From: Candidatus Omnitrophota bacterium
Lineage (GTDB): Bacteria > Omnitrophota > Gorgyraeia > B26-G9 > JBDRCZ01
Direction: 5' to 3'
NCBI GenBank assembly: GCA_043821285.1
Contig: JBDRCZ010000029.1
Span: 14,959-78,958 of the forward strand
Length of the DNA stretch: 64,000 nt
Made by a program: the position numbers and the translations under genes. The notes beneath the pieces were generated by a model. The model searched no databases and was not told where the DNA came from. It was given only the letters and a program-made list of their open reading frames with translations. This document shows, in pieces, positions 1-48,885 of the stretch; positions within the stretch are counted from its first letter, which is position 1, and every line of letters starts with the position of its first letter.

Positions 1-3000
1 AGAGCTGCCTGATCACTCTTTCTTGCCTTGCGGCTATTTTCTCCGCTCAATGTTACCGTACGTAGGGCTTTTAATATTTCTCCTTTTAATTGTCCTTTAA
101 GACCATCAGATAACATGCTAAAATGTTGCTTGATTAAGCCCTCAACTAAGTTAGTAATTTCATTTTTAAACGCAGTTGCCTCCTCCCGTGCCTGGTTAAA
201 ACTCTGGTCAAGTATTGGCTGTTCAACACCAATCTCCTGTAATCGTTCTCTGCCTGCTTGGTAAAATTCTTGCTCTGCCTCGACCCAATCCCTCCCCTGC
301 ACGGTTAAATCAGAATCAGACAAGGTCTGGGCTAATCCTTCAATCCGCCAGTTGAGCCATGCTTCTAAGTCCTTAAATACCCTTTCTTTCTTACTCCTAA
401 CAACTCTCCCATTCCTAATTGTCATCACAATTATTTCACGCTCAGGGTCTTGTTCTAAATCCCTCCTTAATTCATCTACAGTTAAACTGGCATATCCGGT
501 TAAGGTATTTAAACGCACCTGATAAGGATTTTCCTGTTTTTGGTCATTTTCATCAAAAGCATTATTAGCAAAATGCGCTAAAGTTGAGTTACGCATTGCC
601 CGGGCATATTTTTTAATATAGGGATCTCGCAAACCACTGTTTAAAATTTTCTCAAGCTGCTGGTCAGCCTTTTGCATGGCCTCTTTTAAATCAGCGATTA
701 AAACCCGCAGCACGCGTTTGTCAAAATTAATACCCTGCGGCCTAAGTCCTAATTCTACTAACAGATTAAGCATTTGCTCTGCTTCTGCGTCATCAGCATT
801 GGCTATTTTTTCTAAATAAGCTGCTGGGTCTGGTTGCTGGCTAAGTTCTATTAATAGATTATGCACCTTTTTGTATTCTGGTTTTATCGCTAAATTTTTC
901 TGATCAGGATTGTTTATAAATGCATTCTTTTCCTGTTCAGTGATCATTTGATTATTCACTAAGGCAGTTAATAAATCTCCTAATAGTTCTTGCCTTTGTT
1001 GAGGTGAATCGTTATGCTCTTGAACATCTTTCTTATACTGCTTTATTCTTCCTTTTGCATCAGCAACCACCTGATCTAAACTATCCAAGGCTGCCTGGTG
1101 GGTATATTGGTTTAATTCATTAATCAGATTTTCAAATTGATGCTCTGATATTAGTAAATTGGGTAATTGCCTGGCTTCGGTAATTCTATTTTTAAGCTGT
1201 TCCTTAAGCGAGTCTTTTCCTGTACCCGACACCTGATCTAAATTAGACTGCTCAATAAAATCAGCAAAACCAGCCAACTGTTCATCGCGTACTTTTAGTC
1301 TCTCAATCGAAGGACTTGCCGGGTTAATCAGTCTGGCAATTGTCTGAGCTATCTGGTCATTACCTAAGTCTGCTAAAGTGAGTGGTTCATTCTCTGTTTC
1401 TCCGTCATTATCTTCTGGCCCGGCCTTAGATTCAGCCGCGGCATTTTGCTTGGTAATCAGGGCTTCAATTCTGGAAGCATATTCTTCCGGTAAATTTAGT
1501 TCATTTAATACCGGTAAAACGCCTAAATTTTTACTGGTTTGATTTAAAAGGGTATCAACGCTAATTGCTGCTTCGCCTTGGACATAGTATTTGTACATCT
1601 TTTTAGCCTGCCAGCCAAAAGAGAGTGGAGTAGATAATAAAGAAAGGGCCAGCATTGGGAAAGGCAAAGAAGAACCAGCACTAAATATTGAACTGATTAT
1701 TGGGATACTAATTGGCATGCTAACAAGACCAAGGATTATGGCTAAGCTTCCCAAAGGCAGTGCCAGTGAAAGTATATCTGTTCCAAGTTTCCTCACGAAT
1801 GATCCTTTTATTTTGTCCCACACTTCGTCTAACCATGATTTTTCGCCTTTGTTTCTAATCTGTTGAGAAAGCATTATTGCTCTTTGAAAATCACCGCTCT
1901 TCCATGCACTCGCAATCTCTGCATTCAGTTCCGCACGTTTTGCATTCAGTTTCGCGCGTTCATTTTGTTTGTCTGCTGCAAATAATCTATGTCCTCTTAA
2001 ATTATCTTCCATACCTAATACTGCCACCTGTGCTGACTGGGTGCGAGCAGTTTTAAATCCCGCCCAGGATAAACCCGCGCCTTCCTGCTGCCTTCCTGCT
2101 GCTTCCAGTTTTAATAAGGTATATGCTAATGCCTCAACATTTGCTGAAGTAGCTATCGCGGGATTTTGCTGCGTAAGTAGTGCCTCTGCCCGGGCTTCAA
2201 ACTCAACAAAACTCATCCTCTGCCCAGACTGTTCTACTGCTTTCTTAGAAAGGCCAAGGGTATTTGTAAAAGCAAACTGCTGGACACGGCTTAACGCAAA
2301 CCCGTCCTTTTTCACTTGCCGTCTTTTCTGCCAGCTTTCTATCGGCGCCTTATATACCTTGGGTTTGAGCATGGCTGCGGCAATCTCTTCTGGCTGGCTT
2401 AAAAATGTCTGGCTAAGCAGAGAACTTTCCTCAACCTCTTGTTTTGCCTCGTCAGTTAAGAAATTATACACTGTGGCCGCAATAATAAGATTATCATAAC
2501 TTACCTCAGGATTAAGCATGCCCAAGACAAAATCTATTACCTCTTCTTTATCTTGTGTATCATAATCCGCAAACGCGGAAGAATTAATAATATTTTCTGA
2601 TATAAAATCTAATATAGTTTGTGCCTGTTGGGGAGTATTTAGGGAAACGCCTTGCAAGGCTAAATCTTCTAACACCTGAGTAACGGGCGAGTCATTTGGC
2701 AGGAACACAGCTACGCGGGATAAAAGCTCAGGTGACCCACGGGTGCCATTTGAAAGAACGATCCGGTCAAAGTTTTTAAAAAGCTTGGCCTTTTCTGCTA
2801 AAGTAAGCCTGGCCTCCCCGCCTTTTCTGCGGGCTTGGTCAATCTGCTGGATAACATGAACCACGGTCCTATTCTGGCTGACATCATTGGCATGACTAAT
2901 TTCCTCGGATAAAATCCGGTCTAAGAACCGCCGGTGTTTGGCAACCGCAGTAATTTCTCGGATATTTACTGCCTCTCTAAAAGAGATATCTCTTCTCGCT

Positions 3001-6000
3001 TGTATTTTTTGATATCCTTCTGAGGTAAGGATACTCTCAGCAATATCCCTTAAAAGCGCGGCCCGGCTCTTTACCGCCTTGCCATAGTCACCTTTAGCAA
3101 TAAGGTCAAACAATTCCCGGGAAGAAGAAGCCACTCCCCGGATTGTCTGCTCAATAATCTCTTCCGCATTACGCGCATGATGACTTAATCTGAGATTAAC
3201 CTCAGCAGTATCTTTTTTATCTAAAATTGCTCTTAATTCTGCTTCTAAACTATCACGCTTTTGTTCTGAGGTTGCCAAACGCATCATGTGCTTTACTGGC
3301 TCAATCACCCCGCGGGAATAAGCGGCCTCGCGGATATGATGTACTAAGGCTGCAGAAAGCTCTTCACTTTGCATAAGTTCGGCATTGCGGATAAGTTCTT
3401 TTGCTTGGTCTTTTACTTCCCGGCCATAAGTTACTTGCATGCGTTTTAGTTCTTGCAGTCTTACCCCACTGGCGGTTTTTTCTCTTAAGGCACCTTTCAG
3501 ATAAAATACCCTTCTTAGACCTTCTGCTACATTTCTCCTGTTTCTGCCAATACCCTGATAAAGTTCTGATCTGGTCCAATTATGTCCATCCGCAATAACT
3601 AAATCAACAACGCCTATATAATCTATACCTGTTGCCCCTTTAACATTAGAAAGAATTATTCGATTTTGAGCATCATTAGCAAGGTCGCCGACTTTTTTCT
3701 CAGAGGCTGAAGTATTAATAAGCTCTATTGTTTCACCCAGATTATCATTCAAAAATTTTCTTACCAACTCATACATTACCGGATCTTTGACTAAGATTAA
3801 TACCCCCCGGCCATTTCTCCGGCTACTTACTATCTCACGGATAATATTTCGTATGATTGCTGGTTCTGATGCAAATCCACGCGTAACTACATCTTTATAT
3901 GTTGACGGGGTTATCTTAGCAACCCCTTTACCTAAGTGCAGCATATGCATAAGCTCAACTGTTTCTAAAGTACCAGATGCACCTAAAACCGAGGCCTGGC
4001 GGCCAAACATGCCTAATACCTCAGCAACGGTTGATTGGGAAGATGACTTACTATAAAATAATTTGTTCCGATCAACAATATCCGGACCATTTGCAGACTC
4101 TTTAGCATATAAAGCCGCAATAAAATACCGGTCACTAAACACCCGGTCCTCAGCAATATTTCCATTCTCAACCGGTTTAATCTCTTTGTCTTTTACATCA
4201 TATGTCTCTTGTTTCTCGGCAAACCTGGCATCAAAATATGCCTTAGCTGTTCTTTCCTTAATATTATGGGAGTTGATTATTTCCAGTGCCTTGCCATTTA
4301 AGCAATACTCCCCCCGATCCCGATAAACATAAGCATGTTCTTCTTTACGTGCCTCCGCAATATCCTGCGCTCTACCAATTTTTCCTTTTTCCGGCACACC
4401 TATTTCTTTTTGAAATATCGTATCTAATGCTTTTTTTGCATGAAATGCCGCCTCAATAAATTCTTTTTCTAACAGCAGCGATGTTTCAGAAGTAATATAA
4501 GTTACTTTACTGGAAAAAGGAATATGAAACTCATCAAATCTAACTACATCCTGCATGGCTAAGGCATCGCACAGCCGCTGATTTTTGCTTAAGCTTAAAA
4601 ACCCTAATCTGGTCTGGTCAACAACCACAATTTTATCCGGTGATAATAAAACATCAACCAGACCCTGTTCATTTCTCTCCGTATAATATTTATTGCCATC
4701 TTTTAATTCATAACCAAAAATGTCAACTAACTCCTGTAATTTAATTGATCCTTTTCCTCCATGCGCTTTATCACCCGCAAGCACGGTCTGTTCTGCTTCT
4801 CCGGTTTTTACAACCAGCAGTTGATTTAAACTCTTGCCCAGTGCCTTGGCTATCTCCCCTCTGACCAACATCTCCATAATAAAGCCTAAGGTCTTACCAC
4901 CACCAACTGCCTGATAAACACTATTTTCTTTTAACAGTTCTACAACCATCTTAATCTGGGCTGTAGATCTTTCTACATCCAGCAGGCCGGTTAACTCCTC
5001 CTTTGTTACATCCCGCCCCTGTTTCTTAAGCTCTAATTTTTTCGCTTCAATCAAATCCGCATGCGCCTTTTCAAAAACTATTCTTAATACTAAGCCGGTT
5101 AATCCTTCGACCATTTTTTCCCCACGGCCCGTAATTTCTCGCACCCTTTCTTGAACCGCGTCTTTGCTAATTTTCCCTTCAACAAGGATATCACGGTTAA
5201 ACTCAGTAATAATCTCGCCTTCTGCGCCTTGTAATTGTACCTTACCAGTCTCTTTATCAACAAAAACCTCAATCTCGCCAGATTCTAATCCCTGCACCAC
5301 TGCCTCAATCTCTTTACCCATCTTTCGCATGCCGCTGACAATCTCTAATTCTGGATAGAGCTTTATGAGCATTTCCACACCCATGTTCATTCTGGCAGAG
5401 CCAGCGATTAATTGAATTTCTTGTTTACCTAATATTCCTTCAACCCTGCGGTCAATTTGCTTATTTAATTCATTTATCCCCTGATTTAGCCGCTCAATTT
5501 GTTTATCAATCAGACGAACACTATTATCAAACGCTTCAATTCCCGTCCCGTTTTCTAAGCTATCTCTTCTTTCTGCTAACTGTCTACGTTTATCTCTTAG
5601 ATTATCAATTTTATTTAACAATTCATTTTTTTCCCGAATAAGCGGACTATGCTCTAATTCCTGTCTTGCGGTTTTTACTCTATCAATCAAATTACTAATC
5701 TCCGCATCAGCTACCCGGTCTAATTGTCTGATATAGGCATCTATAATATAGGTGCTTATATTTCGCGTGCTTAATTTCTCAGAAGTTAGCCCTTGCTTTA
5801 TGTTGCGCTCTAAGAGTGCTTGACCGCCAATGATTGTGGCCTCAGAAAAACCCTGGGGATTTTCACCAATTAATGCGTTTATATCCTTTAATATTTCTAA
5901 GTTGACCCGGTCCAGGGACTGGCTGATACTTTGCTGGCGTAAGGCAAGCTGCTGCTGGGTCTCACCCTTTAAATATGCCTGCTGATACTCTTGTTGTTTT

Positions 6001-9000
6001 TGATAATAATCGCGCTGTGTCTGGGTAAGTGTCTCAGCACCTTCTGCACTTAATCTTTTTTCAAGCCCTCGGGCATTGTAACGGTGTTCTTGCACATAGT
6101 CTACCAAGTGTCTTACATATTTTGTATCCTTAGGATTAATCCGATATACCTCCATTAACCCTTCAGTTATATTGCCCTCCAATCTATACGGCTCAAAGAC
6201 CTGCATAGATGCCTGCATCCTTAATGCCTCAGTAAGCTCTACTCTTAAAGGCGCCCGTTCACCAGAAGGCAGTTTTACCTCAACCAATACCTGATCCCCG
6301 ATCTGAACATCTTTATCTAACAGGCGCCGGGCATCCTGATCACCGACTAATTGTACCTCTTTACCTAATTTTTCTCGCAGAGTATCGCTTAAAGGTTTAA
6401 TTTCATTGTGGGCTCTAATCAAATTTCCTAACTCTGACAAGTTTAAAGAATTAACTCCCTTTATAAGTTCTGCACCAAAAGAATTTTCCACGCCTAATGA
6501 CTCTCTTCTTAGAGAATTTCTAAAAATAATTTCGGCATTAGAAGAATCTCCTGCTAATGCCTTACCGGCTAATTCCCAGTGAATATCGCTTCTGCCTTCA
6601 GGTTTGCCTTCTGCCAGCCATATACTATGAGCAAGAAATTTTTGTAAGTTATCTTTTTTGCCATCAGCCGCATATTCGCTTAAGTATTCTAACCCTAAAC
6701 GGATATCCCTGCCCACGGTAGCAAGATTGCCTCGGCTAAAATGCTGGGTAATCATATCTGTTTGCTGCTCCACAAAACCCTGTTCTCTTAAATAGTCTGC
6801 CACTACAGGCACTAATTCGCCCACCCTTTCTAAAACCTGCATTTCTAAATCTGCACCCTGACGTAATGCCTCTCTTAAACTCCCGTATTTCCTTACCGTG
6901 GCAAAATTCTTCACAGTTTTCTCGGAATTTATCTTGCCATCAGCTTCTCTTACGGTAAGCAACTCAGCGTTTAGCCGGTTTAGGTTTGGCTTCATAAATA
7001 GTAATGCCCAACCTAAAGCAAAACGTTCTCCTTCAGAAAATGCCATACCACTATATCTGGCTAATGCCTGCTCAAACCCACCCGCGGCCTGAATATCAGC
7101 CGCAGTCAATGCTCCACTTACAACATCTGCATACGCACCAGCTCTGCGCACACTCTGCAAACCCCGTTCAATACCGGTAACAAAACCCGAAACAAAGGTC
7201 AAAGATTTTGCCTCAAGCACTAAACCAGAGGCAATACTTAGGAAAGAATTATTTGCGGCCATGCCTCGGGCAAGCGAGCCTTCGATACGTGCCATTGGCC
7301 GGCCAATAAATGCGCGCGCTTTATTATATGCGCCTTCTCCAGCCTTAGCACGGGTGAGTGCTTGGGGAGATTTGCTAAGTATTTCATCAGAATGGCGCAT
7401 CATCACCTTAATCATCGGCCCCATAAATTTCCCTTCTTTTGCTGCAGCAAACCAGCTTATTGCCCGGTTAGCAGTAAAAAAGCTTCCCCAATCCAAAGGT
7501 AAATACCCCTGTTCCTCAGTCCCTTCTCTAAACCATGTATATTCATCTCCAATCTTAAACTGCCAAGAGGAGTTGATTAATTCTTGATTTCCCGTAAAAC
7601 GTCCAACTATTCTATCCGCTCCCGTTTCTAACACATGTATCCCCGTATCCCAGACAGGGCTTGCCATATTCATAACCATAGAAACAAACGGCCATTTTAT
7701 TGCCCCTTCTAACGCATCCAGGGCTAATTGGTTTATGCCATCACCTGTAAACGGGGTCTTGCTTCTCCTTAATAAACCAGTTTGTAATTCCGCAGTCTCT
7801 ACCCTGCTATAATCTCGCACGTGACCACCAATACCTTTCACAAACTCCATACCCTGCGGTGAAATTGCCCATTTAAATAGTATTCCAAGAAACGCACCTT
7901 TTGCAAATGCTGCGACAAATTCACCGGGAGTTGAACTGGCATTTAACCCGCCAGTAAGATAACTCCAAGCAATATTTCCAAATCCTCCAAGCGAAGCGAC
8001 GGTAAGACCTCCAATCACACGAGAGTTAAGTGTACCACTATAAATACCCTTATACGCACTTTCTCCAAGCCTATAAACTCTCGATAGACGAGTGCTATTA
8101 GAAATCCCCTGGTACGCTGTTGTCCCAAGATGATAGACTCTGGCCAGACGAACTTGACTTACCGCAGGATTAGCTGCACTCATCGCAGCAGTTGCTGCTT
8201 GAGATACATTTGCCACGCCGCCAAAAACACCCAATAATCCGCCAAGAATAAATCCGCCGATGAACCCTTTGGTATAAGTGTGTACATTTAACGGGTCAAA
8301 ATGAAATCCGGCATCTTTATTAATCCGGCCTTGATCATCAGTCTCATAATCCCAGCCAAAATAGCTCTTGGCACTAAGTTCTAAAGCCCCTAAAAATCCT
8401 TTATCTTCTCCCTGGCTAAACATCTGCTGGGCTAAGACATTATTCACCAACATATCAACATTACCAAAAACCGTACCCAAGTTAAGCCCTGCTCTTAAGC
8501 TGTGCAAGCCTATGCCCTTAAGTCCCTGGCTAGCCGTCTGGGTAAGCAAAACATTTGCCCCAGATAAGCCAAGCACACTCAGCGTAGTTGTGGCAAATAT
8601 TGCAATATTTTGTTCAAAGCTTAAAAATTGGCGATTATTAACCACAAAAGACGCAGCATTTGCGGCTGCAACTGCCGTAACTCCCATACTTGAAGCTGCA
8701 CCTACTCTGCTTGCAACAGGGGCTATTTTTGTTGCTATTGGCTCAAGTTTTTCCGCGAATCTGGCTGCTAAGGAAAATTTACCAGTAAGCTTCGTACCAC
8801 CCTTAGCAAGTAAAGTGCCGCCTTTAGCAAGCAAAGTACCGCCTTTTAATAACCCCCCACCAACAAACAGCAGTGGTACAGTAGTCGTCAAATCAACCCA
8901 ATCAAGAACACTGTATCCTCTAAAATCCAAAACATCCCCTTTATTCGGCAAAACTAAAGGAATAACAAAACTCATCGGGTTATGGGTCAATTGCATCCGG

Positions 9001-12000
9001 GTCATGGCAAAATCCATTCTTGCTTTAGCAAGAACAATATTTTGGTCTAATGTTTGTATCCTCTGTGCATATCCATTACTATTAATAATCATTGCCGCAG
9101 TATTACGTGCATCAGGGTCCTTAATCTTCTCTAATATTGCTGCTGGGGATATATCTCTAACCCTATCTACATGAGCTGGAGTTACCTCCCCGGGACTGCT
9201 GATGTAAGCCACAGGATTATCTCCATCACTATTTATTCTGGGGTCAATATAAACGTCACTCTCATTCATACCTACGAATTTATCGATATCAATCCCTTGC
9301 TTTGCTAATTGTTGTAATAATTCCACATAAACTCTGTCTTTTTGCTGATTTAAACTTGCCTTTTCACCAACCCCGCCAAAATAATCTCCAGTATCATTAG
9401 TCCCTACCGCAGATTCCCGGATACGTTTTTCAATCCCTGCCTGCAGTATTGCGCCAATATCCGCAAGAAGCTGTATATCTTGAATAAAATTATACAGGGT
9501 TGGATTGTTCGTGTAAAGCTCCTGCATTTTATTAGAATATGCATCCCGGGCACTTTTATAGTCTATGACAACTTGAGAACGTGCTTGAAGCTGCTCCGGC
9601 GTAAACCTCACAAGTTCCTCCGAAGAAAGGTCAAAGCCTGGGTTATCTATATATAAATTAAGCCGCACATCATACATGGTTCTGGCATGCTGCAGGTCTT
9701 GCCATACTGCATATGTATTTCCATAATTAGTCTTTAGCTCGTTTACTTTGTCATTATACTGTTTAGATTTATTCATATAATTATCTACCGCCGCATTATT
9801 ATATTTATTCTCATCACTATTCCAATACGTGGCAATCGCATCCTGCACTTGTCCATTTATTTTACGCACATCAAATAAGGCCTCGTAAGTTTCCAAAGAC
9901 GCCTTTGCTAAATTAACATCTGCAAAATGTGCGTCGTCTTGCTCCTGAATAAGTGCCCGAACTGTAGGATCATCCTTATATTGCGCTAATACATCTGCAT
10001 AATTCTGCTCCTGTTTCATCAGCTCCTCTATGGACTGATAAGTTTTCGGCATATTTTCCTTAATCATCTTTCTTGTCTGGCACTCCTCACGTAACACCTC
10101 AATTGCCGGCCTTGCCGCGTCCAGTAACTCCGCAAGCCTGCCGCGAGAAAAAATTTCCGGAGTAGTTTCGTCTAATAAACCCATGTATGATAACGCAGAA
10201 TTGGCATTGAATTTTATCTTCTGCACATCATAAGAAATAAGTGGGCTCTCAATATCTATATGCATTACCCAAAAGCTACCTGGCTGGGCTGGAGCATCGC
10301 CGCATTCTGCCTTTTTAAGTACAATTATTCCCTGGGTTGGGTCTAAGGTGTCTAATTCGTCTAACGCCTTTTTATAAGTAGTACTATTACGCGTATCACC
10401 ATTAGCTATTGCGGCCTTATATCTTTCTTCAACTTCCCCCCTTAATTCAATATTGATAAGCAAAAAAGTATCAGGGCTTGTAAGGTCATCCAGTTCTGGA
10501 GCATAAGCGCCTGCTTTTTCTCCTTGCGTTATATAACGACCTGTGTTTTCATCAATTGTACCTGCTACAACAGGTATCTTCTCTCTTGCATCCTTCCATA
10601 ATTCTGCTATATCCCTTCCGCCTTCCTCTTCTGCAAAACCCCAAACTTTATCCCATGCATCGGTTATTGCCGCACTTGCTCCTTCAAGTACCTTTTGAGC
10701 TGATTCTGTTAAGTTATACCATGCCTGTGCAATCCCCTGTGGTTTTTCATAAGCTTCTCTCGCTAAGTCCTCAGTTCCCGATCCAATTGCTAATTTCCAC
10801 AAATTATCCGTTGCCTCATTAGCTAGTTCCATTAAATCTTTTACTGGTTTTGGCAAAGCTAACCCTAAGTTGTGTAATGCCTCACCAATTGGTCCAAGCC
10901 CACATACTAATTCTAATGCTCCCGGTCCATCCTCTGCTGCAGTTGGATATAACTTTGTTTGCAAGTCAGAAATTCTATTCTGTTCTTGCTGTAATAAAGG
11001 AAAGTTGGTAAAAAGATTACTTGTTAGCGGTTCTAACTTTTGCCTTAGACCATATAATATATTCACAAGCGGATCATTTGTATCAAGACCCTTAATCTCG
11101 ACTCTTCCATCTTCCGTTTGTATTATGTCATATCTATTAGTTATCTCTTCTTTTTTTTGATTAAAGAAATTCATTAAGTTATTTAACCCTGGAATAGTTA
11201 ACTCGGGCAGGTTTGGTGGTTTTGTCTGCTGTAAATAGGCGTTTTGCACTGCTGGCATACCAGTATTAGGATCAATAGGAGCGGCTGTCTGTGGATTTGT
11301 TGGACCAAATATTTGAGGTAATTGTGCCATAATGCCACCAACAACACCAGTTACACCATTTAACGTATGTATAAAGCTAACCTGCTCATCTAGAGATAAT
11401 TTTGATTGATTAGCCGGCGCTTCACTTGATTTACCAGCCGTAAAATAGCTATTATTTAAAGTTTCATCATCCAATAGTGGGATGTATCCCATATTGTCTA
11501 ACTCATAGGTCAAAGAACTTGGCCCCATAAATAAATTTTTCAACCCCTCCCACCCCGGGATATCTACTTGTGCTGCGGACATTGTTACGGGTATGTATCC
11601 TATGGAATCATCTTCTGATATGTATCCTAAATCCCAGGTATCTGTATCTATCGTCGTTTCAGTTAGCGGTGCAAAAAGCATTGCTCCTATGTCTAAAAAT
11701 GACGGCTCTTCCGGGCTCCAGGCTAATGTGTCCTCAGAAGCAACTGGAACATTGAATAAATCTACAAAATTTCTTGCCCCATCCAAAAGGGGATCTAAGG
11801 TAACTTGAGTTAAATCTATATTTGGCAGAGCTAAAGGTGATTGCGCCTCCTTATTAAGGTTATCCCAGACAAAGATATTTTCTTGAGGAGAAGGTGGCTG
11901 CTGGGGGTTATTGAATAAATTTAAAAAATTATTTGCAGCACTGGCCGCACCATTTAAAAAATTATCCCACCATGAAGTTTGCGGCGCTGTATTTGCATCC

Positions 12001-15000
12001 GTTGTGCCGGTGTCAGATGCATTATCTGTTGCCCCGGGTAAACTTGGATCATCAATCCCTGTTCCCCATGTAGTATCTCCTGTTGTTTGTCCGCTATGCT
12101 CTGCCATTGCCGCCGCCCATTTTGCTTTATTTTTAGCTACCTGTTCCGGGTCTACTTCATTTCCTGTCGTGTCCCCGCCAATCATCTTACCTTTCGTATC
12201 AAAATAAACTGTAACTCCGTTTAACACCTGCCGGCCGGAACCGTCTTTATTAAAATATATGTCCGCACCGCTCTTATGGTCTTTGGCATAAAAGGCCATG
12301 CCGTCTTCCGGGTCCAAATGGTAAGTCATCCATTTTGCCCCGGTAACATTCATTACAATAAATTCCGGATTACTATAGTCAAACGTGGATATCGTGCCTT
12401 GTTCATGGTCAATTAATTTTAGTCTCCGGTTAATATCATTCGCATCTCTTACATCTACGATAATACATCTACCTGTAACTTCATCCCCGCGGAAAACATT
12501 TATTGCCACGACCCCTTCTTGGCTCCAATCAAACACTGAGGTTGTGCCTTTTTCATGGTCAACCCGCTTAATCGTGCGCTCGGTCTGTGCGTCTTGATAC
12601 TCGGTCATACTAATCGGCAGGGTATTGCTGTCTCCATAGTAAACATCTATTTTAATTACCGCAGGATCACTGTGGTCGTAAATCCAGGTTTGGGTCGGGG
12701 TGATCATCTTTTCCCATTGGTTGGTTGCTCTATTTCTGTAAACCGTAGCAGTTATTTGGCCGGATGGGTTAATAATTGTTGATTGAAGGAGATTGGGATT
12801 AGTGTTGTTGTTATTAACATGAAACATAACATTGCCGTTTTGCTGTATAGTAAGCGGGGCATTACGGAAATCCGTTTGCAGGTTAACTGGCAGGGATAAG
12901 ATTATATTGTTTACTAAGTTAATATTGGAAATTAATGTATTCCTGTAAGTTGTATCATTCAAATTTTGCTGCACCGTAGCAATAGCCCGTTGCAGGTTTT
13001 GTCCCTGGTTTACATTAGTGTTAATCTGTGCGGCTACTACGGCTCTCACTGTCTCCCTGGGCACAAAACTGCCACTAGCAATTGCCGCAAGCTGTGCTGT
13101 GTCATTTACTGCATCATAAGGAGATATATATGCCCCGTTTTGTGCCGCGTTCATAAAAGCACCTTTGGCTGCGGCCCGGGCAATGTCTTGTGCCTGCTGG
13201 CTGTTCGGGTCCATGCCCTGGTTAATCAACTGCCGCATGGTTGCGTCCCAGGCCTGGTCACCAGCATAACCCGCAGTATCTGCTACTGGGATAGTTGCGC
13301 TACCACCACCATTATCATTACTGTCATCATCATCGTATAGATGACCACCGCCTCTTTCAATCTCATCTAATGCTGCTGCTCTCGCTACATAACCCGCTTC
13401 CTCATCTGATAACCCCTGTTGCTTAGCATAGTCCCATGCATCCTCTCCAGCATTTGCCCCTGCTGTTATCTGCATCTCTTGCTGAGTAAGTTTCCGGGAA
13501 TTGCCCTTGGCCTGGTCACTTAATACCTTGCCATCCCATAACCGGTTAAACTCCTTAGTGGTGAGTATCTTTTTCTCGCCATTATCAATAATCGTAACAT
13601 TATTGGAATCTATCCGGATTAATGTTACCCAGTGGCCTTCAAAGTGGATAATCACCGGCCGGTTAGTTTTAATTAAACTCTCCAGGTCCATTTCATAGCC
13701 GTCTAAATTAACCTGATATTTTGTCGCAATCATCTTTAAGGCATACATCGAGGTAAATACGTCTTGTCCGCGGATTACAACTTCTCCTTCCGCTAAAATA
13801 TCCTGCAGGATTAGTTCGTAAGCTAATCTTTGCTTATCCGTATCCTTCCCCTGTATATTAAGGAGAGCAGCTAAGGCATTGACCGCACAGTTAATAATAT
13901 TTATCACCGCATCCTTGGCCCAGTTAACCGCCTTGGAAATAAAGCTCGATACAATCTCACTTGCCGAGTATTTTGCACTAATCATGGCCTGGGCAATTGT
14001 TACCATTGACCGGTCAAGTTGAGTGGCAATCTTTAAGACATCTTCGGCGCTTACCATAAGCGATTTAAGTGCCAGAATAATCTCTTGGTCAGAATAATCT
14101 GCGTTTAACAGGGTGCGGTATATCTGATAATTACTAAAGGGAAGTTTTGCCTCTTTTATTGCGGCAATAATATCTGTGGCTGAGCGGTTGGCAGATTTAA
14201 GCAAGGCCGCTATTTCCACTAAGCCCTTACCCATCTGGGCAAAGCTGGTAATAATCTCGCTGTCCGTATATCCCTGCTGGAACATTTTTAAAACTAAGGC
14301 TTCCTGCCGGTAGTCTAATTTTATTAATGCGTGCATCATTACAAATGCTTCCTGCTGTTTTTGTTCTTCAATATTTTGCTCAGGTTTTACCCCTACCTTT
14401 CCAATTTCTGGCAGTACTTTATCCCGGTGCTGTTCGATTATTTCGCGTTTTGCCGCCTCTTCCTGCAAAAGCGATAATTTCTCCCGGTCTTCTCTTGTCT
14501 GTTCTCTGACTGGTCTTGAGATTAAACTCTCGGCCTCGTGTTCTGAATACCCGGCAGAAACCAATGCCTCATAAATCTCATCGGCAAAATACCCTTGTTT
14601 TAGCGCGGTTATTGCCACATCCCGGGCAGAATTACCGGATTTTTTAAGCAGGGTAATCATTGTGGTGAGGTCATAACCCGCAGCTCCCATACCTTTGATT
14701 GATTCTTTAATAAAACTAAGATTCGAACCAATACCGGCGGCATAATCCCGGGCAATTTTACTTTCGCTGCCCGCTTGCGGAAGAGAGAGTGTGTTTAGGG
14801 GGGAATAAGCGGTTTGGGTTATATCAATTTGTTCGGTTTTTACCCGCGGGGTGTTTTTGGTGAGTTCATCAAGAAGGTCTCTCTGTCCCTGTAGATAGCG
14901 AAAATCCGCAGCCAGGGAAAAATTGCTGTTGGTAAACAAAAATGCCTGAATTAATAATACGGTGATGAATTTAAACCATAATTTCTTTGTTATTATATTC

Positions 15001-15002
15001 AT
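1..15002 (-). CDS. giant multidomain secreted protein, 5' complete, 3' end beyond window (at least 5,000 aa). Order from N-terminus: signal peptide; ~33-aa helical repeats; C39-like peptidase domain (Ser at the Cys position); beta-rich repeats; Gly-rich hydrophobic/tandem-repeat region; SF2 DExH helicase core
   Basis: GGAGG then a 7-nt spacer then ATG at 15000-15002 on the minus strand. N-terminus MNIITKKLWFKFITVLLIQAFLFTNSNFSLAADF is signal-peptide-like. Manual translation of the reverse complement from 15002 down to base 1 met no stop, and the reading frame at base 3 matches the frame set at the ATG. Plus-strand ORFs across this span are all 268 aa or shorter and lie antisense. The minus-strand ORF is absent from the track, as expected if the track lists only frames closed by a stop inside the window. 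Internal motifs: GHWVTLIRIDSNNVTIIDNGEKK (C39 His region, about 13600-13700), VGGGKT (4888-4915), DEFH (4524-4535), QGIGRNRR (3536-3560). Confidence 0.8.
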   Translation of the reverse strand, partial: MNIITKKLWFKFITVLLIQAFLFTNSNFSLAADFRYLQGQRDLLDELTKNTPRVKTEQIDITQTAYSPLNTLSLPQAGSESKIARDYAAGIGSNLSFIKESIKGMGAAGYDLTTMITLLKKSGNSARDVAITALKQGYFADEIYEALVSAGYSEHEAESLISRPVREQTREDREKLSLLQEEAAKREIIEQHRDKVLPEIGKVGVKPEQNIEEQKQQEAFVMMHALIKLDYRQEALVLKMFQQGYTDSEIITSFAQMGKGLVEIAALLKSANRSATDIIAAIKEAKLPFSNYQIYRTLLNADYSDQEIILALKSLMVSAEDVLKIATQLDRSMVTIAQAMISAKYSASEIVSSFISKAVNWAKDAVINIINCAVNALAALLNIQGKDTDKQRLAYELILQDILAEGEVVIRGQDVFTSMYALKMIATKYQVNLDGYEMDLESLIKTNRPVIIHFEGHWVTLIRIDSNNVTIIDNGEKKILTTKEFNRLWDGKVLSDQAKGNSRKLTQQEMQITAGANAGEDAWDYAKQQGLSDEEAGYVARAAALDEIERGGGHLYDDDDSNDNGGGSATIPVADTAGYAGDQAWDATMRQLINQGMDPNSQQAQDIARAAAKGAFMNAAQNGAYISPYDAVNDTAQLAAIASGSFVPRETVRAVVAAQINTNVNQGQNLQRAIATVQQNLNDTTYRNTLISNINLVNNIILSLPVNLQTDFRNAPLTIQQNGNVMFHVNNNNTNPNLLQSTIINPSGQITATVYRNRATNQWEKMITPTQTWIYDHSDPAVIKIDVYYGDSNTLPISMTEYQDAQTERTIKRVDHEKGTTSVFDWSQEGVVAINVFRGDEVTGRCIIVDVRDANDINRRLKLIDHEQGTISTFDYSNPEFIVMNVTGAKWMTYHLDPEDGMAFYAKDHKSGADIYFNKDGSGRQVLNGVTVYFDTKGKMIGGDTTGNEVDPEQVAKNKAKWAAAMAEHSGQTTGDTTWGTGIDDPSLPGATDNASDTGTTDANTAPQTSWWDNFLNGAASAANNFLNLFNNPQQPPSPQENIFVWDNLNKEAQSPLALPNIDLTQVTLDPLLDGARNFVDLFNVPVASEDTLAWSPEEPSFLDIGAMLFAPLTETTIDTDTWDLGYISEDDSIGYIPVTMSAAQVDIPGWEGLKNLFMGPSSLTYELDNMGYIPLLDDETLNNSYFTAGKSSEAPANQSKLSLDEQVSFIHTLNGVTGVVGGIMAQLPQIFGPTNPQTAAPIDPNTGMPAVQNAYLQQTKPPNLPELTIPGLNNLMNFFNQKKEEITNRYDIIQTEDGRVEIKGLDTNDPLVNILYGLRQKLEPLTSNLFTNFPLLQQEQNRISDLQTKLYPTAAEDGPGALELVCGLGPIGEALHNLGLALPKPVKDLMELANEATDNLWKLAIGSGTEDLAREAYEKPQGIAQAWYNLTESAQKVLEGASAAITDAWDKVWGFAEEEGGRDIAELWKDAREKIPVVAGTIDENTGRYITQGEKAGAYAPELDDLTSPDTFLLINIELRGEVEERYKAAIANGDTRNSTTYKKALDELDTLDPTQGIIVLKKAECGDAPAQPGSFWVMHIDIESPLISYDVQKIKFNANSALSYMGLLDETTPEIFSRGRLAELLDAARPAIEVLREECQTRKMIKENMPKTYQSIEELMKQEQNYADVLAQYKDDPTVRALIQEQDDAHFADVNLAKASLETYEALFDVRKINGQVQDAIATYWNSDENKYNNAAVDNYMNKSKQYNDKVNELKTNYGNTYAVWQDLQHARTMYDVRLNLYIDNPGFDLSSEELVRFTPEQLQARSQVVIDYKSARDAYSNKMQELYTNNPTLYNFIQDIQLLADIGAILQAGIEKRIRESAVGTNDTGDYFGGVGEKASLNQQKDRVYVELLQQLAKQGIDIDKFVGMNESDVYIDPRINSDGDNPVAYISSPGEVTPAHVDRVRDISPAAILEKIKDPDARNTAAMIINSNGYAQRIQTLDQNIVLAKARMDFAMTRMQLTHNPMSFVIPLVLPNKGDVLDFRGYSVLDWVDLTTTVPLLFVGGGLLKGGTLLAKGGTLLAKGGTKLTGKFSLAARFAEKLEPIATKIAPVASRVGAASSMGVTAVAAANAASFVVNNRQFLSFEQNIAIFATTTLSVLGLSGANVLLTQTASQGLKGIGLHSLRAGLNLGTVFGNVDMLVNNVLAQQMFSQGEDKGFLGALELSAKSYFGWDYETDDQGRINKDAGFHFDPLNVHTYTKGFIGGFILGGLLGVFGGVANVSQAATAAMSAANPAVSQVRLARVYHLGTTAYQGISNSTRLSRVYRLGESAYKGIYSGTLNSRVIGGLTVASLGGFGNIAWSYLTGGLNASSTPGEFVAAFAKGAFLGILFKWAISPQGMEFVKGIGGHVRDYSRVETAELQTGLLRRSKTPFTGDGINQLALDALEGAIKWPFVSMVMNMASPVWDTGIHVLETGADRIVGRFTGNQELINSSWQFKIGDEYTWFREGTEEQGYLPLDWGSFFTANRAISWFAAAKEGKFMGPMIKVMMRHSDEILSKSPQALTRAKAGEGAYNKARAFIGRPMARIEGSLARGMAANNSFLSIASGLVLEAKSLTFVSGFVTGIERGLQSVRRAGAYADVVSGALTAADIQAAGGFEQALARYSGMAFSEGERFALGWALLFMKPNLNRLNAELLTVREADGKINSEKTVKNFATVRKYGSLREALRQGADLEMQVLERVGELVPVVADYLREQGFVEQQTDMITQHFSRGNLATVGRDIRLGLEYLSEYAADGKKDNLQKFLAHSIWLAEGKPEGRSDIHWELAGKALAGDSSNAEIIFRNSLRRESLGVENSFGAELIKGVNSLNLSELGNLIRAHNEIKPLSDTLREKLGKEVQLVGDQDARRLLDKDVQIGDQVLVEVKLPSGERAPLRVELTEALRMQASMQVFEPYRLEGNITEGLMEVYRINPKDTKYVRHLVDYVQEHRYNARGLEKRLSAEGAETLTQTQRDYYQKQQEYQQAYLKGETQQQLALRQQSISQSLDRVNLEILKDINALIGENPQGFSEATIIGGQALLERNIKQGLTSEKLSTRNISTYIIDAYIRQLDRVADAEISNLIDRVKTARQELEHSPLIREKNELLNKIDNLRDKRRQLAERRDSLENGTGIEAFDNSVRLIDKQIERLNQGINELNKQIDRRVEGILGKQEIQLIAGSARMNMGVEMLIKLYPELEIVSGMRKMGKEIEAVVQGLESGEIEVFVDKETGKVQLQGAEGEIITEFNRDILVEGKISKDAVQERVREITGRGEKMVEGLTGLVLRIVFEKAHADLIEAKKLELKKQGRDVTKEELTGLLDVERSTAQIKMVVELLKENSVYQAVGGGKTLGFIMEMLVRGEIAKALGKSLNQLLVVKTGEAEQTVLAGDKAHGGKGSIKLQELVDIFGYELKDGNKYYTERNEQGLVDVLLSPDKIVVVDQTRLGFLSLSKNQRLCDALAMQDVVRFDEFHIPFSSKVTYITSETSLLLEKEFIEAAFHAKKALDTIFQKEIGVPEKGKIGRAQDIAEARKEEHAYVYRDRGEYCLNGKALEIINSHNIKERTAKAYFDARFAEKQETYDVKDKEIKPVENGNIAEDRVFSDRYFIAALYAKESANGPDIVDRNKLFYSKSSSQSTVAEVLGMFGRQASVLGASGTLETVELMHMLHLGKGVAKITPSTYKDVVTRGFASEPAIIRNIIREIVSSRRNGRGVLILVKDPVMYELVRKFLNDNLGETIELINTSASEKKVGDLANDAQNRIILSNVKGATGIDYIGVVDLVIADGHNWTRSELYQGIGRNRRNVAEGLRRVFYLKGALREKTASGVRLQELKRMQVTYGREVKDQAKELIRNAELMQSEELSAALVHHIREAAYSRGVIEPVKHMMRLATSEQKRDSLEAELRAILDKKDTAEVNLRLSHHARNAEEIIEQTIRGVASSSRELFDLIAKGDYGKAVKSRAALLRDIAESILTSEGYQKIQARRDISFREAVNIREITAVAKHRRFLDRILSEEISHANDVSQNRTVVHVIQQIDQARRKGGEARLTLAEKAKLFKNFDRIVLSNGTRGSPELLSRVAVFLPNDSPVTQVLEDLALQGVSLNTPQQAQTILDFISENIINSSAFADYDTQDKEEVIDFVLGMLNPEVSYDNLIIAATVYNFLTDEAKQEVEESSLLSQTFLSQPEEIAAAMLKPKVYKAPIESWQKRRQVKKDGFALSRVQQFAFTNTLGLSKKAVEQSGQRMSFVEFEARAEALLTQQNPAIATSANVEALAYTLLKLEAAGRQQEGAGLSWAGFKTARTQSAQVAVLGMEDNLRGHRLFAADKQNERAKLNAKRAELNAEIASAWKSGDFQRAIMLSQQIRNKGEKSWLDEVWDKIKGSFVRKLGTDILSLALPLGSLAIILGLVSMPISIPIISSIFSAGSSLPFPMLALSLLSTPLSFGWQAKKMYKYYVQGEAAISVDTLLNQTSKNLGVLPVLNELNLPEEYASRIEALITKQNAAAESKAGPEDNDGETENEPLTLADLGNDQIAQTIARLINPASPSIERLKVRDEQLAGFADFIEQSNLDQVSGTGKDSLKEQLKNRITEARQLPNLLISEHQFENLINELNQYTHQAALDSLDQVVADAKGRIKQYKKDVQEHNDSPQQRQELLGDLLTALVNNQMITEQEKNAFINNPDQKNLAIKPEYKKVHNLLIELSQQPDPAAYLEKIANADDAEAEQMLNLLVELGLRPQGINFDKRVLRVLIADLKEAMQKADQQLEKILNSGLRDPYIKKYARAMRNSTLAHFANNAFDENDQKQENPYQVRLNTLTGYASLTVDELRRDLEQDPEREIIVMTIRNGRVVRSKKERVFKDLEAWLNWRIEGLAQTLSDSDLTVQGRDWVEAEQEFYQAGRERLQEIGVEQPILDQSFNQAREEATAFKNEITNLVEGLIKQHFSMLSDGLKGQLKGEILKALRTVTLSGENSRKARKSDQAA
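8796..8860 (-). repeat. in-frame 21-nt tandem repeat (about 2.5 units) encoding (LLAKGGT)n within the giant gene
   Basis: accacccttagcaagtaaagt / gccgcctttagcaagcaaagt / accgcctttt... on the plus strand. Confidence 0.7.
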
Positions 15003-15022
15003 AATATAGCCTCCAAAAAAAC

Positions 15023-19354: not shown

Positions 19355-20521
19355 ATGGTATCCTCGAGATGTATGGTAAATAGAACCTTTTGGCAAAAGC
19401 AGATTGAAGCATTATGGAAAGAAAAATCTATCATCTGGCTCTCCGGCATCCGTAGAGCAGGAAAGACCTTTCTTTCTAAAAGTCTTCCGAATATCGAATA
19501 TTTTGACTGCGAATTACCCCGAACTCGCAGAATGTTAGAAGACCCTGAAGGATTTTTGGAAACGTTTAAAGAGAAACGCATTATTCTTGATGAAATTCAT
19601 CGTCTTAAGAATCCTTCAGAACTTCTAAAAATTGCTGCTGACTATTATCCTTCTATACAAGTACTGGCAACCGGCTCCTCTACTTTAGGGGCATCAAGAA
19701 AATTTAAGGACACCCTTACCGGCAGAAAACGCTCCCTTTGGCTAACACCAATGAATCTCAACGACCTCGCTGATTTTAATAATATAAATTTATCTCACCG
19801 CTTTTTACACGGAGGGCTCCCCCCGTTTTTTATGGCGCAAAAATTGCCGGAAAAAGATTTCCAAGAATGGATTGACGCTTACTGGGCAAAAGACATCCAA
19901 GAATTATTTCGCTTGGAACGCCGTTATTCCTTCCAAAGATTTTTTGAACTGCTTATGGCTCAAAGCGGCGGCATTTTTGAGGCTACAAGATTTGCAAAAT
20001 TGTGTGAAGTAAGCCGTACAACAATAACTAATTACCTTAAAGTACTCGAAGCAACCTTTGTTGCTCATGTGATCCGCCCATTCAGTTCCCACCGTCCAAC
20101 AGAAATTGTTTTAGCACCGAAGATCTACGGTTTTGATACTGGGTTCGTCTGTTACCACCGTGGTATAACCACATTGCGTTCTGAAGACATGGGACTCCTC
20201 TGGGAACATATTGTATTAAATGAACTTCAGGCAGAATTACAAACACGCAATATTTACTATTGGCGTGATAAACGCGGTCACGAGCTTGATTTTATTCTTA
20301 TACAAAAAAATAAAATTCCCCTGGCGATTGAATGTAAAAGCACATTAGCAGAAAACAGTATTCGAACACGAAACATCCAAGCCTTCTTAACCCAATACCC
20401 ACAAGCAAAAATATTTTATGTCTGTCCTGACGTCAAACGAGTCTATCAGATAAAACTAAAAACCACAAAAATCACAGTAACCAATCTTCCAACACTGCTC
20501 AAAGCACTAAACAACGCATAA
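19355..20521 (+). CDS. AAA+ ATPase of the COG1373 type (AAA_14 N-domain with DUF4143 C-domain)
   Basis: Walker A GIRRAGKTFL and Walker B ILDEIH. Length of about 390 aa and C-terminal region are typical of this family. Only sizeable plus-strand gene in the window. True start may be the Met at 19373. Confidence 0.75.
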   Translation: MVSSRCMVNRTFWQKQIEALWKEKSIIWLSGIRRAGKTFLSKSLPNIEYFDCELPRTRRMLEDPEGFLETFKEKRIILDEIHRLKNPSELLKIAADYYPSIQVLATGSSTLGASRKFKDTLTGRKRSLWLTPMNLNDLADFNNINLSHRFLHGGLPPFFMAQKLPEKDFQEWIDAYWAKDIQELFRLERRYSFQRFFELLMAQSGGIFEATRFAKLCEVSRTTITNYLKVLEATFVAHVIRPFSSHRPTEIVLAPKIYGFDTGFVCYHRGITTLRSEDMGLLWEHIVLNELQAELQTRNIYYWRDKRGHELDFILIQKNKIPLAIECKSTLAENSIRTRNIQAFLTQYPQAKIFYVCPDVKRVYQIKLKTTKITVTNLPTLLKALNNA

Positions 20522-20524
20522 TAA

Positions 20525-20692
20525 GTTTTATTTATAGAAAAATCAATTAAATTAGATAATTACTACATACCAACAAGACATCCTGATGCCTTACCGGGCA
20601 TATTACCAGAAGGGCTGCCCGGCAAAGATGATGCCGAGGAGGCAATATCGATTTTAGAAGAAGTAAAAGTTTTTGTGAGCAAAATTCGTTAG
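20525..20692 (+). pseudogene. C-terminal remnant (about 55 codons, no start) of a HEPN-domain gene
   Basis: In-frame translation gives VLFIEKSIKLDNYYIPTRHPDALPGILPEGLPGKDDAEEAISILEEVKVFVSKIR. This resembles the C-terminal consensus of HEPN (PF05168-like: Y-IP-RYPDA-P...EEA...A). It begins right after a stop codon abutting the ATPase gene. Confidence 0.45.
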
Positions 20693-20709
20693 TCAATTAT
20701 TCATGTAAA

Positions 20710-21804
20710 TTATCGATTCTTTAATATCCATTTTTTCCAAAATGGATCCTCGAGTTCAATCTTCCCGCCATTTATTTTTATTAACGTCCCTAAGGCAATT
20801 AATTTACTTACCACGCTGCCCGCGGTACTCGCTGACTTGATCCCATATTTTCTTATAAATTCCTGTGCCGTAGGATGAGAATTACCTGAAACAATCCCAA
20901 TAATAACCTTTCGTTCAGTATTAGTCAAACTGTTCCACCATCTCGAATAATCTGCATGATGTTCTGTTATAATTTGGTCAATAGCCTTATTTATTACCCC
21001 CTTTGTTAAAATCATTTTTTCACTTAGTATGTAGATCTCATGGCACAATTGCTGAGTATAATAAGGGTGGCAATTAGTAAAGCTTAGAATATCGTTTACA
21101 ATTTCACGAGCATCTATTTTTTGCGAAGAAAATCTTTTTATGACAAACTCTAAAAATTCCGCCTTAGGAATTTTATCCAAGTTAATATGACGGCCAAATT
21201 TATAGAAAGGGTTCTTTTTGTTTTGAAATATTTCCCGAATCATGCTCTCTTGACTTCCGATGAAAATATATGTTATGTTTTGATGATATTGAAATACCCC
21301 GCGCATCTTTCGCTCAAGCATCGGAGAAATCCGGCGTATTTCCTGAAATTCATCAAAAACAATTACAATCTGTTTTTTTATGTTTCTGGCAATCGTTTCC
21401 GGAAGTTGAAGGCTATCTGAGAGAAGAGCAGCAATGTTTCTTTTCTCTGTACTGAAGGACACGGAGATTTCATTCGTTTTTGGCTGAATCTGAATATAGG
21501 GCTGTATCTTTAGGCTGGTTAGGTAATGTTTTATCTTTTCAAACTTACTTAATGATAAGGCATTTCGAACATAATAATTAGCCAAGTCTACCTCATCGGC
21601 AATCAACTCCATATTAATCCTGAACCATTTCATCCCGCTGGCTTTCATTGCTTCATTTATAAGACTGCTTTTACCATAGCGGCGTGGGCTCATAAGCACA
21701 ATATGCTGGCCCGCCTTTAGCTCCGCAGCTATTTCTTTTATTTCTTTATCACGATTGGTGAAGTATGCCCCTGTTACGACATTACCAAATCTAAAGGGAT
21801 TCAT
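20710..21804 (-). CDS. AAA+ ATPase of the archaeal ATPase / DUF234 type (COG1672-like)
   Basis: Walker A SPRRYGKSSL and Walker B VIVFDEFQ. About 360 aa with a DUF234-like C-terminus. Confidence 0.7.
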   Translation of the reverse strand: MNPFRFGNVVTGAYFTNRDKEIKEIAAELKAGQHIVLMSPRRYGKSSLINEAMKASGMKWFRINMELIADEVDLANYYVRNALSLSKFEKIKHYLTSLKIQPYIQIQPKTNEISVSFSTEKRNIAALLSDSLQLPETIARNIKKQIVIVFDEFQEIRRISPMLERKMRGVFQYHQNITYIFIGSQESMIREIFQNKKNPFYKFGRHINLDKIPKAEFLEFVIKRFSSQKIDAREIVNDILSFTNCHPYYTQQLCHEIYILSEKMILTKGVINKAIDQIITEHHADYSRWWNSLTNTERKVIIGIVSGNSHPTAQEFIRKYGIKSASTAGSVVSKLIALGTLIKINGGKIELEDPFWKKWILKNR

Positions 21805-41598: not shown

Positions 41599-41623
41599 CT
41601 TGCTCCTCCTTTAATATTAGTAG

Positions 41624-42923: not shown

Positions 42924-42946
42924 ATAAAACCCCTTTTTTATTCTCT

Positions 42947-48870: not shown

Positions 48871-48885
48871 ATAAACTTCCGCATT

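Follow-up and report, generated by a model that had tools for sequence, protein, structure and literature searches.

The left end of the DNA stretch analyzed here (the window, 64,000 nucleotides of contig JBDRCZ010000029.1 from a Candidatus Omnitrophota bacterium, assembly GCA_043821285.1, positions 14,959 to 78,958) holds the 5' two-thirds of a single genuine 23.4-kb chromosomal gene. Its 7,803-residue product is best explained as a membrane-anchored Omnitrophota giant protein that would expose a C39 peptidase domain on the outer face of the membrane and keep a SecA-like export motor in the cytoplasm, a reading to which we assign a probability of roughly 0.7. The identity of the gene and the class of giant genes to which it belongs can be stated with high confidence. 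Omnitrophota are ultra-small, probably predatory or episymbiotic bacteria, and a strikingly large part of their small genomes consists of giant genes. A gene of this kind bears on the way in which polypeptides of 10^4-10^5 residues can be produced, inserted, and put to use.

The reality of the reading frame is directly visible in the DNA. Translation of the reverse complement of window positions 3..15002, starting from an ATG at 15000-15002 on the minus strand, yields 5,000 residues and no stop codon, and an in-frame stop lies 17 codons upstream of this ATG. The other two minus-strand frames of the same interval contain 423 and 502 stops, and the plus-strand frames contain 148, 283, and 322. 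Shuffling the sequence 200 times gave longest stop-free runs of 108 codons on average and 220 at most. The GC content at codon positions 1, 2, and 3 is approximately 0.53, 0.38, and 0.36, a coding-like pattern that is the same in all ten 500-codon bins. An earlier sequence-only reading of this DNA had described one minus-strand frame of at least 15 kb opened by an ATG with GGAGG 7 nt upstream, and had dismissed everything on the plus strand as antisense noise. Both statements hold, as plus-strand open reading frames (ORFs) inside the interval reach at most 268 aa and are antisense by-products. The 268-aa frame itself, at 8368..9174 (+), begins with TTG and runs opposite the segment that encodes the Gly/Ala-rich region. 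In all likelihood it is no gene and owes its openness to the skewed base composition of the other strand.

The 3' end had been placed outside the window, and this also proved correct. When the ATPase region was compared exhaustively by HMMER with 1.84 billion cluster representatives, the search retrieved P0002, which is the NCBI entry MFH1776504.1, a 7,803-aa "C39 domain-containing protein" of a Candidatus Omnitrophota metagenome-assembled genome (MAG) that is encoded on a 123,203-bp contig. P0002 is 100% identical to the ATPase-region query at the same offset, and its residues 1-5000 equal the window translation at all 5,000 positions. The gene is therefore 23,412 nt long including the stop codon, which is located approximately 8.4 kb past the left window edge, and the protein continues for 2,803 aa beyond the window. 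No Ns are present in the window span of the gene, and its DNA tandem repeats amount to two trivial 21-bp arrays, so that repeat collapse, which the earlier reading had named as its possible undoing, is no concern and was rejected as an artefact. The one notable tandem repeat, at 8794..8846 (21 bp in 2.5 copies) encodes GGTLLAK three times (aa 2049-2070) at the start of the Gly/Ala-rich membrane block.

The same search defines a small, lineage-specific family, as had been predicted. It comprises 31 representatives at an E-value of 1e-3 or better, and nearly all of these are multi-thousand-residue proteins or fragments of such proteins. The Omnitrophota origin is given by the NCBI names of P0002 and P0033. 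A search for orthologs in a genome scan found four related loci, all four in Candidatus Omnitrophota MAGs, where the homologous frame is open over nearly all of the 17-22 kb retrieved (3,594 to more than 7,259 codons) and runs off the retrieved locus. BLAST mapping showed that aa ~3300-4250 are common to almost all members and aa ~2300-2800 to a few, and that the N-terminal ~2,300 aa and everything past ~5,300 aa are lineage-specific. The layout of a signal-anchor, an N-terminal C39 domain, and a SecA-like module is also found in P0013 (7,074 aa), L003 (at least 6,691 aa), and P0012. This recurrence points to an inherited architecture and not to an accident of a single assembly.

In the ATPase of the protein, the motor motifs follow one another in order: I (GGGKT, residue 3367), II (FDEFH, 3489), III (GASGT, 3674), V (KGATGIDY, 3788), and VI (QGIGRNRR, 3816). 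In an alignment of the ATPase module with 12 relatives (A2), the Walker A lysine, the Walker B Asp-Glu pair, the glycines of motif III, and the Gln and Arg of motif VI are invariant, which indicates that the ATPase is under selection. A single-sequence search of the PDB with the ATPase returned nothing, and the SecA link emerged only from the family profile. With the A2 profile, Thermotoga SecA (E=6e-6) was the sole significant family among all PDB sequences; the next families (HsdR, XPD, UvrB, and Mfd) had E-values of 0.075 or worse. The match to SecA is colinear and comprises the Walker A region, a weak insertion block, and motifs III-VI. The insertion block, which aligns with the preprotein cross-linking domain (PPXD), is not significant alone. 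The offsets of the N- and C-terminal alignment blocks differ by 17 residues only, so that an insertion of approximately 170-180 aa matches the PPXD of SecA in both size and position.

Structural models point in the same direction. An AlphaFold2 model of aa 3251-3950, built from a 17-row alignment, had a mean predicted local distance difference test score (pLDDT) of 72.6 and a predicted template modeling score (pTM) of 0.69. In a Foldseek comparison of this model with the PDB, SecA and SecA2 structures filled ranks 1-29 (E 1e-16 to 7e-9, ~700 aligned columns), with the best template modeling (TM) scores of approximately 0.55-0.56 to SecY-engaged SecA (6itc, 5eul). Generic helicases appeared from rank 30 at TM-scores of ~0.3. 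A second model, of the entire conserved module (aa 3330-4260, pLDDT 75), again placed SecA/SecA2 in ranks 1-29. Both models show a helix of ~45 residues straight after the second nucleotide-binding domain (NBD2), at the position of the SecA scaffold helix (H536-580 in the second model). By profile and by model, the ATPase is thus a very divergent SecA-like motor, composed of two RecA lobes and the insertion, with the SecA/SecA2 translocation motors as its closest relatives. The sequence-only reading had called it a complete SF2 helicase core; the SF2-type motifs I, II, III, V, and VI are indeed there, but the generic helicase assignment gives way to SecA. Within this region, the helix after NBD2 (window ~3180..3380, aa ~3878-3944) weakly matches the C-terminal part of the PADLOC HamA/DUF1837 model (E=5e-4, 17.8 bits), which was the sole PADLOC match and is probably a chance helix similarity.

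At the N terminus, the predicted signal peptide reads MNIITKKLWFKFITVLLIQAFLFTNSNFSLA and is followed, after the cleavage position, by ADF; similar N-termini occur in P0013, P0012, and L003. The ~2,000 N-terminal residues are largely without annotatable domains but include the C39 peptidase. The PF03412 match covers aa 417-495 (E=8e-11) and scores 42.4 bits with the protein piece and 38.5 bits with the whole protein, against a cutoff of 22. The residues Cys372, His457, and Asp473 are present. Because Cys372 and His457 are present and also invariant in the C39 domains of three relatives (L003, P0013, and P0012), the domain looks like an active peptidase and not like a degenerate C39-like domain. 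A PDB sequence search with the C39 region alone gave only weak matches to papain-like toxin domains. The signal peptide, the five helical repeats, the C39 domain, the two beta-rich repeats, and the Gly/Ala-rich region reported from the sequence alone were all found in their places (Table 1).

Table 1. Features of the giant gene and its product within the window
Feature	Window position	Strand	Basis or remark
GGAGG ribosome-binding site	15010..15014	-	7-nt spacer to ATG 15000-15002; direct sequence reading
First 5,000 codons (64%) of the 7,803-codon gene	3..15002	-	Open frame and identity to MFH1776504.1
Sec-type signal peptide, aa 1-31	14910..15002	-	Predicted by sequence inspection: KK n-region, hydrophobic core, S-L-A/A cleavage motif
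Five helical repeats with GY[ST]xxEI core, aa ~100-360	13923..14705	-	Regex matches at aa 137, 151, 244, 302, 344
Peptidase C39 domain, aa ~360-500	13503..13925	-	PF03412
Two ~50-aa beta-rich repeats, VDHEKGTTSVFDWS / IDHEQGTISTFDYS	12213..12575	-	VDHEKGT at aa 814, IDHEQGT at aa 864
Gly/Ala-rich hydrophobic membrane block, aa ~2040-2700	6903..8885	-	Kyte-Doolittle scan, composition
Charged helical / coiled-coil-like linker, aa 2701-3339	4986..6902	-	34-40% charged residues plus Gln
Divergent SecA-like DEAD motor (predicted), aa 3340-3830	3513..4985	-	
Alpha/beta insertion between motifs II and III, aa ~3500-3665	4008..4505	-	Position of SecA preprotein cross-linking domain
All-helical conserved extension, aa 3831-4250	2253..3512	-	Kept in 13-24 relatives
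Hydrophobic hairpin, aa 4405-4470	1593..1790	-	Kyte-Doolittle maximum 2.27; segments 4410-4428 and 4448-4464
Helical lineage-specific C-terminal region, window part aa 4471-5000	3..1592	-	Continues outside the window to aa 7803

Beyond these elements, domain libraries are nearly silent. Peptidase_C39 is the sole clear Pfam domain in all 7,803 residues besides a borderline DUF2934 motif in the linker (aa 2790-2815, 22.7 bits against a cutoff of 22), and Pfam detected no ABC transporter domain in the giant protein and nothing significant in aa 5001-7803, the 2,803 residues outside the window. NCBIfam assigned no family to the protein, PHROGs gave no match, and no Pfam family corresponds to the GY[ST]xxEI repeats. 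After the beta-rich repeats, a Choline_bind_3 (cell-wall/choline-binding repeat) match of 16.5 bits (E=0.0085) falls below the cutoff of 27 and is a hint only. PDB sequence searches of aa 501-2000, 2001-3300, and 3951-5000 found no match. The Gly/Ala-rich block (aa 2001-2750 in its widest delimitation), which is partly conserved in five relatives, has its strongest hydrophobic segments at aa 2133-2153, 2246-2264, and 2362-2380, and the hairpin near the end of the conserved region is flanked on both sides by Lys/Arg-rich sequence. The deposited protein continues beyond the hairpin for ~3,300 aa of helical repeats. A self-search with hidden Markov models (HMMs) identified three well-conserved tandem repeats of ~240 aa outside the window (aa 5540-6257, 322-354 bits) and degenerate copies at aa 5424-5536, 6481-6637, 7266-7388, and 7510-7588. 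Scans of genome and metagenome contigs found no relatives of the C-terminal 600 aa of the window part.

These features suggest how the protein may be arranged and what it may do. Because hydrophobic segments flank the ATPase on both sides (the block at aa ~2040-2400 and the hairpin at aa 4405-4470), the protein is most likely anchored in the membrane with its motor in the cytoplasm. It had earlier been described as secreted; the Sec-type signal at the N terminus stands, whereas simple secretion does not fit the flanking hydrophobic blocks. The envelope genes Mla, Lnt, and OEP in the window indicate a diderm cell. The signal peptide would route the first ~2,000 residues through the inner membrane, so that the C39 domain would be exposed on the outer face, where it would trim the giant protein itself or cleave other substrates. 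The hydrophobic block would then anchor the chain and return it to the cytoplasm, where the ATPase needs to be. As the hairpin is positively charged on both flanks, the C-terminal helical repeats are probably cytoplasmic as well. The tethered motor would be powered by ATP and drive polypeptide through the membrane, probably by way of SecYEG. Its most plausible cargo would be the long extracytoplasmic segments of the giant itself, with partner proteins as a possible addition. This translocation mechanism, with self-export at its center, stands at about even odds at best. The biological role is probably one in cell-surface or host/prey interaction, as the literature proposes for the giants of this phylum; no domain found here points to it.

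A number of observations weigh against this picture. Adding the helical extension of ~400 aa to the model did not raise the TM-scores to full-length SecA, and neither a SecA-type wing domain nor the two-helix finger, which is important for pushing polypeptide into SecY, is demonstrated in the models. With E-value limits of 1 (pieces of the window) and 0.1 (13 relatives), Pfam SecA_DEAD and SecA_PP_bind gave no match, and in the SecA-like region the Pfam matches of the giant and its relatives are limited to generic Helicase_C, DEAD, and ResIII families. No adhesion or carbohydrate-active domain was detected with Pfam or NCBIfam, and the window contains no type II secretion genes. The topology is predicted from a hydropathy scan and the positive-inside rule, and how often the chain crosses the membrane within aa 2040-2700 is ambiguous. 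Should the hairpin cross the membrane twice, ~5,000 of the 7,803 residues would be in the cytoplasm, a poor fit to a purely extracellular adhesin or degradative role. As a further observation on the motor, the Helicase_C match on the giant (E=0.007, 16.6-17 bits) lies below the cutoff of 23.5. When a word-indexed database was searched with the profile for bridging sequences that carry precomputed Pfam domains of SecA, P0001 alone came back.

Several other explanations have to be set against a membrane-anchored giant with a SecA-like motor. An assembly or annotation artefact, whether a chimeric or repeat-collapsed contig or a non-coding run that is open by chance, is hardly credible. The source is a MAG, and the deposited protein comes from the same assembly and is not an independent confirmation of it. 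However, 5,000 stop-free codons face a shuffle maximum of 220, GC content by codon position is uniform, the giant gene contains no Ns and no significant DNA repeats, and colinear relatives with the same domain order exist in at least four independent MAGs and approximately 30 database clusters. It is also very improbable that the ATPase is an ordinary SF2 DNA or RNA helicase within a polyvalent protein, for example of a conjugative or defence element. Such a helicase would account for the marginal Helicase_C match, for matches to Helicase_C in 5 and to DEAD/ResIII in 2 of the 13 relatives, and for the weak HamA/DUF1837 similarity in the helix after NBD2. It would not account for SecA as the sole significant PDB sequence family of the profile, for the top 29 Foldseek ranks of SecA in both models at about twice the TM-score of helicases, for the insertion at a SecA-specific position, or for the membrane segments on both sides of the motor. 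Moreover, no nucleic-acid-binding, nuclease, or relaxase domain was found in the giant with Pfam or NCBIfam, PHROGs gave no match, and the chromosomal neighborhood is of the housekeeping type, with no mobile element. A polyvalent protein of a mobile element was rejected on account of this context, and a defence helicase was likewise considered and rejected.

Two further proposals accept the SecA-like motor. In a polyprotein, C39 or other proteases would cut the 7,803-aa precursor into an ectodomain, a membrane-anchored SecA-like ATPase, and a helical-repeat protein. Such processing would not conflict with the preferred explanation but would redefine the functional unit, and we consider it unlikely, if still worth keeping in mind. 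The apparently active C39 domain, with Cys372 and His457 kept in relatives, speaks for it, as does a modular pattern in which only the core (aa ~2300-4250) is conserved and the N- and C-terminal thirds are lineage-specific. However, family C39 classically cleaves short N-terminal double-glycine leaders and not internal sites, cleavage sites are not identifiable from the sequence, and a peptidase outside the membrane could not reach the cytoplasmic parts. West-Roberts et al. (2023, bioRxiv 10.1101/2023.11.21.568195) proposed that C39 and S8 domains serve in processing of the polyprotein type, and the same authors also allow for export "of accessory proteins". The latter is in line with a dedicated exporter of the accessory-Sec kind. 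Here a SecA2-like motor would export, instead of or besides its own chain, a few clients whose idiosyncratic signal peptide matches; a neighboring 1,292-aa HExxH protein could be one of them. We regard this as rather improbable. The first 32 aa of this neighbor (22647..26525, minus strand) are 47% identical to the signal peptide of the giant (E=0.001), across all six translated frames of the window the motif W[FIL][KR].[IVL]...AF[LIV] is confined to these two N-termini, and SecA2 structures are among the best structural matches of the motor. Nevertheless, the case concerns two sequences only, and common ancestry or recombination at the 5' end could explain their likeness. The neighbor is without detectable relatives in which co-occurrence could be compared, and the window contains no accessory SecY2/Asp-type genes.

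A bolder extension of the preferred reading is that the conserved core of ~2,000 aa (Gly/Ala-rich block, linker, motor, extension, and hairpin) could be a membrane-tethered "auto-translocon". We consider this doubtful. If it were true, a descendant of SecA would be anchored permanently beside its own channel or SecYEG and would recognize a dedicated type of signal peptide shared with the neighboring 1,292-aa protein. Export of multi-thousand-residue polypeptides would then be possible, and the system would represent a distinct branch of Sec and the enabling invention behind gigantism in Omnitrophota.

The rest of the window is ordinary chromosome, with ROK, CysS, GltX, IspDF, RadA, Mla, ClpC/McsB, a bio operon, MacB-HlyD-OEP, and Lnt, and contains no mobile-element genes. 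The 1,292-aa ORF lies 7.6 kb upstream of the giant gene and has its HExxH motif at aa 1102. Its N terminus aligns with the signal peptide of the giant as MNNLTRTIWFKLIAIILVNAFLCMDISLAA against MNIITKKLWFKFITVLLIQAFLFTNSNFSLAA. It matches no Pfam family and has no relatives beyond its own NCBI entry ABH952_03000 (hypothetical protein), which is annotated 17 aa shorter, with a start at which the signal peptide would be lost. Between the giant gene and this ORF, two divergently oriented ATPase genes (AAA_14/DUF4143 and ATPase_2/AAA_14) occupy 19355..21804, and a 70-aa Cys-rich zinc-ribbon-like ORF without a Pfam match is found at 22000..22212(-). The stretch with the two ATPases and the zinc-ribbon-like ORF looks like a small variable island in housekeeping sequence. 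Between the 1,292-aa gene and cysS, an 89-aa ParE toxin (PF05016, E=1.8e-9) and a 77-aa ribbon-helix-helix antitoxin (PF01402) overlap at 26774..27269 (-).

Other parts of the neighborhood are of separate interest. At 39166..43850 (-), a ClpC-type double AAA+ chaperone, a McsB-like ATP:guanido phosphotransferase, and a UVR-motif (McsA-like) protein stand in a row, which looks like a quality-control module based on protein-arginine phosphorylation. An apparently complete biotin synthesis cluster at 47296..53170 (-) comprises BioA-like Aminotran_3, BioD-like AAA_26, a BioC-like methyltransferase, a BioH-like hydrolase, BioF-like Aminotran_1_2, and BioB-like radical SAM/BATS. A 2026 preprint describes notable deficits in biotin biosynthesis across Omnitrophota genomes (10.64898/2026.06.07.730766). 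The segment 55488..56144 holds a small RF-1-domain protein (142 aa, ArfB/peptidyl-tRNA hydrolase-like) that adjoins tRNA-Ser(CGA) at 56054..56144(-), the only tRNA gene of the window.

With SecA and SecA2, the motor of the giant has motifs I, II, III, V, and VI in common, as well as an equally large insertion where the PPXD sits and a long helix after NBD2. It differs in its low identity of 13-15% and in its place inside a membrane protein, at residue ~3,340, whereas SecA is a soluble protein of ~900 aa. In addition, a C-terminal SecB/zinc-binding tail is not demonstrated in the motor, and ~400 aa of family-specific helices follow it. The C39 domain has its counterparts in bacteriocin exporters, the peptidase-containing ABC transporters (PCATs, e.g., ComA), with which it shares the PF03412 fold and the Cys-His(-Asp) catalytic residues. 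In this respect it is unlike HlyB, where the C39-like domain is inactive and lacks the cysteine. In contrast to PCATs, the domain is not fused to an ABC transporter, and it is predicted to lie outside the cytoplasmic membrane, whereas the C39 domain of PCATs is cytoplasmic.

The closest comparison is with the giant genes already described for this phylum. The sequence-only reading had found no known family for the protein; it proves to have the published chassis of Omnitrophota giant proteins (West-Roberts 2023, Seymour 2023, Nielsen & Lui 2026). Seymour et al. 2023 (PMC10066038) reported that most Omnitrophota classes contain ORFs longer than 20 kb whose products have many transmembrane helices and few annotated domains. 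The present gene exceeds this length with 23,412 nt, likewise belongs to an Omnitrophota genome, and encodes a protein with multiple hydrophobic helices, few annotated domains, and poor conservation. Genes of more than 90 kb with products of more than 30,000 aa were described by West-Roberts et al. 2023 (bioRxiv 10.1101/2023.11.21.568195), with a 39,678-aa protein of Velamenicoccus archaeovorus LiM as the type example. These giants have signal peptides, an N-terminal C39 (or S8) domain, numerous transmembrane regions, and divergent SecA_DEAD and SecA preprotein-binding domains in which the scaffold and wing are absent, and self-export was proposed for them (10.1101/2023.11.21.568195). A signal peptide, a C39 domain near the N terminus, long unannotatable stretches, and a predicted SecA-like ATPase next to transmembrane segments recur in the present protein. 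At 7,803 aa, it is ~4-11 times smaller and falls outside their size class. Of the two types named by West-Roberts et al., Archaeovorins are defined by glycosyl-transferase/hydrolase, methyltransferase, NUDIX, and similar enzyme domains, none of which Pfam and NCBIfam found in all 7,803 aa; the Dockerin type has dockerin and TSP3 repeats, for which Pfam gave no match here. Its SecA-like domain is too divergent for Pfam SecA_DEAD, and both models show a long helix behind NBD2, in contrast to the reported absence of scaffold and wing.

As the protein is in the databases already, and both the phenomenon and its main interpretation have been published before, no new category is opened here. It can be seen as a stripped-down member of the class that keeps the chassis (signal peptide, C39, membrane block, and SecA-like motor) and carries no enzyme cargo, and it would be a far more tractable model for the self-export hypothesis than proteins of 40-150 kaa. 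What is added is the true length of the gene, the reclassification of a "helicase" as a putative SecA-like motor, the conserved core of ~950 aa, the architecture that recurs in relatives, and a possible link to a neighboring gene through a shared signal peptide. In the survey of 916 long Omnitrophota proteins by Nielsen & Lui 2026 (bioRxiv 10.64898/2026.06.07.730766), the two largest clusters by Pfam architecture are "PF03412 only" and "PF07517 (SecA_DEAD)", and by its Pfam content the present protein falls in the former, the largest of all. A SecA-like module in C39-only proteins was not resolved by Seymour et al. 2023 or Nielsen & Lui 2026, whereas profile and structure comparison bring it out here. 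Proteins catalogued as "C39-only" can hence hide a SecA-like motor that HMM libraries miss, and the motor may be more universal among the giants than Pfam counts suggest.

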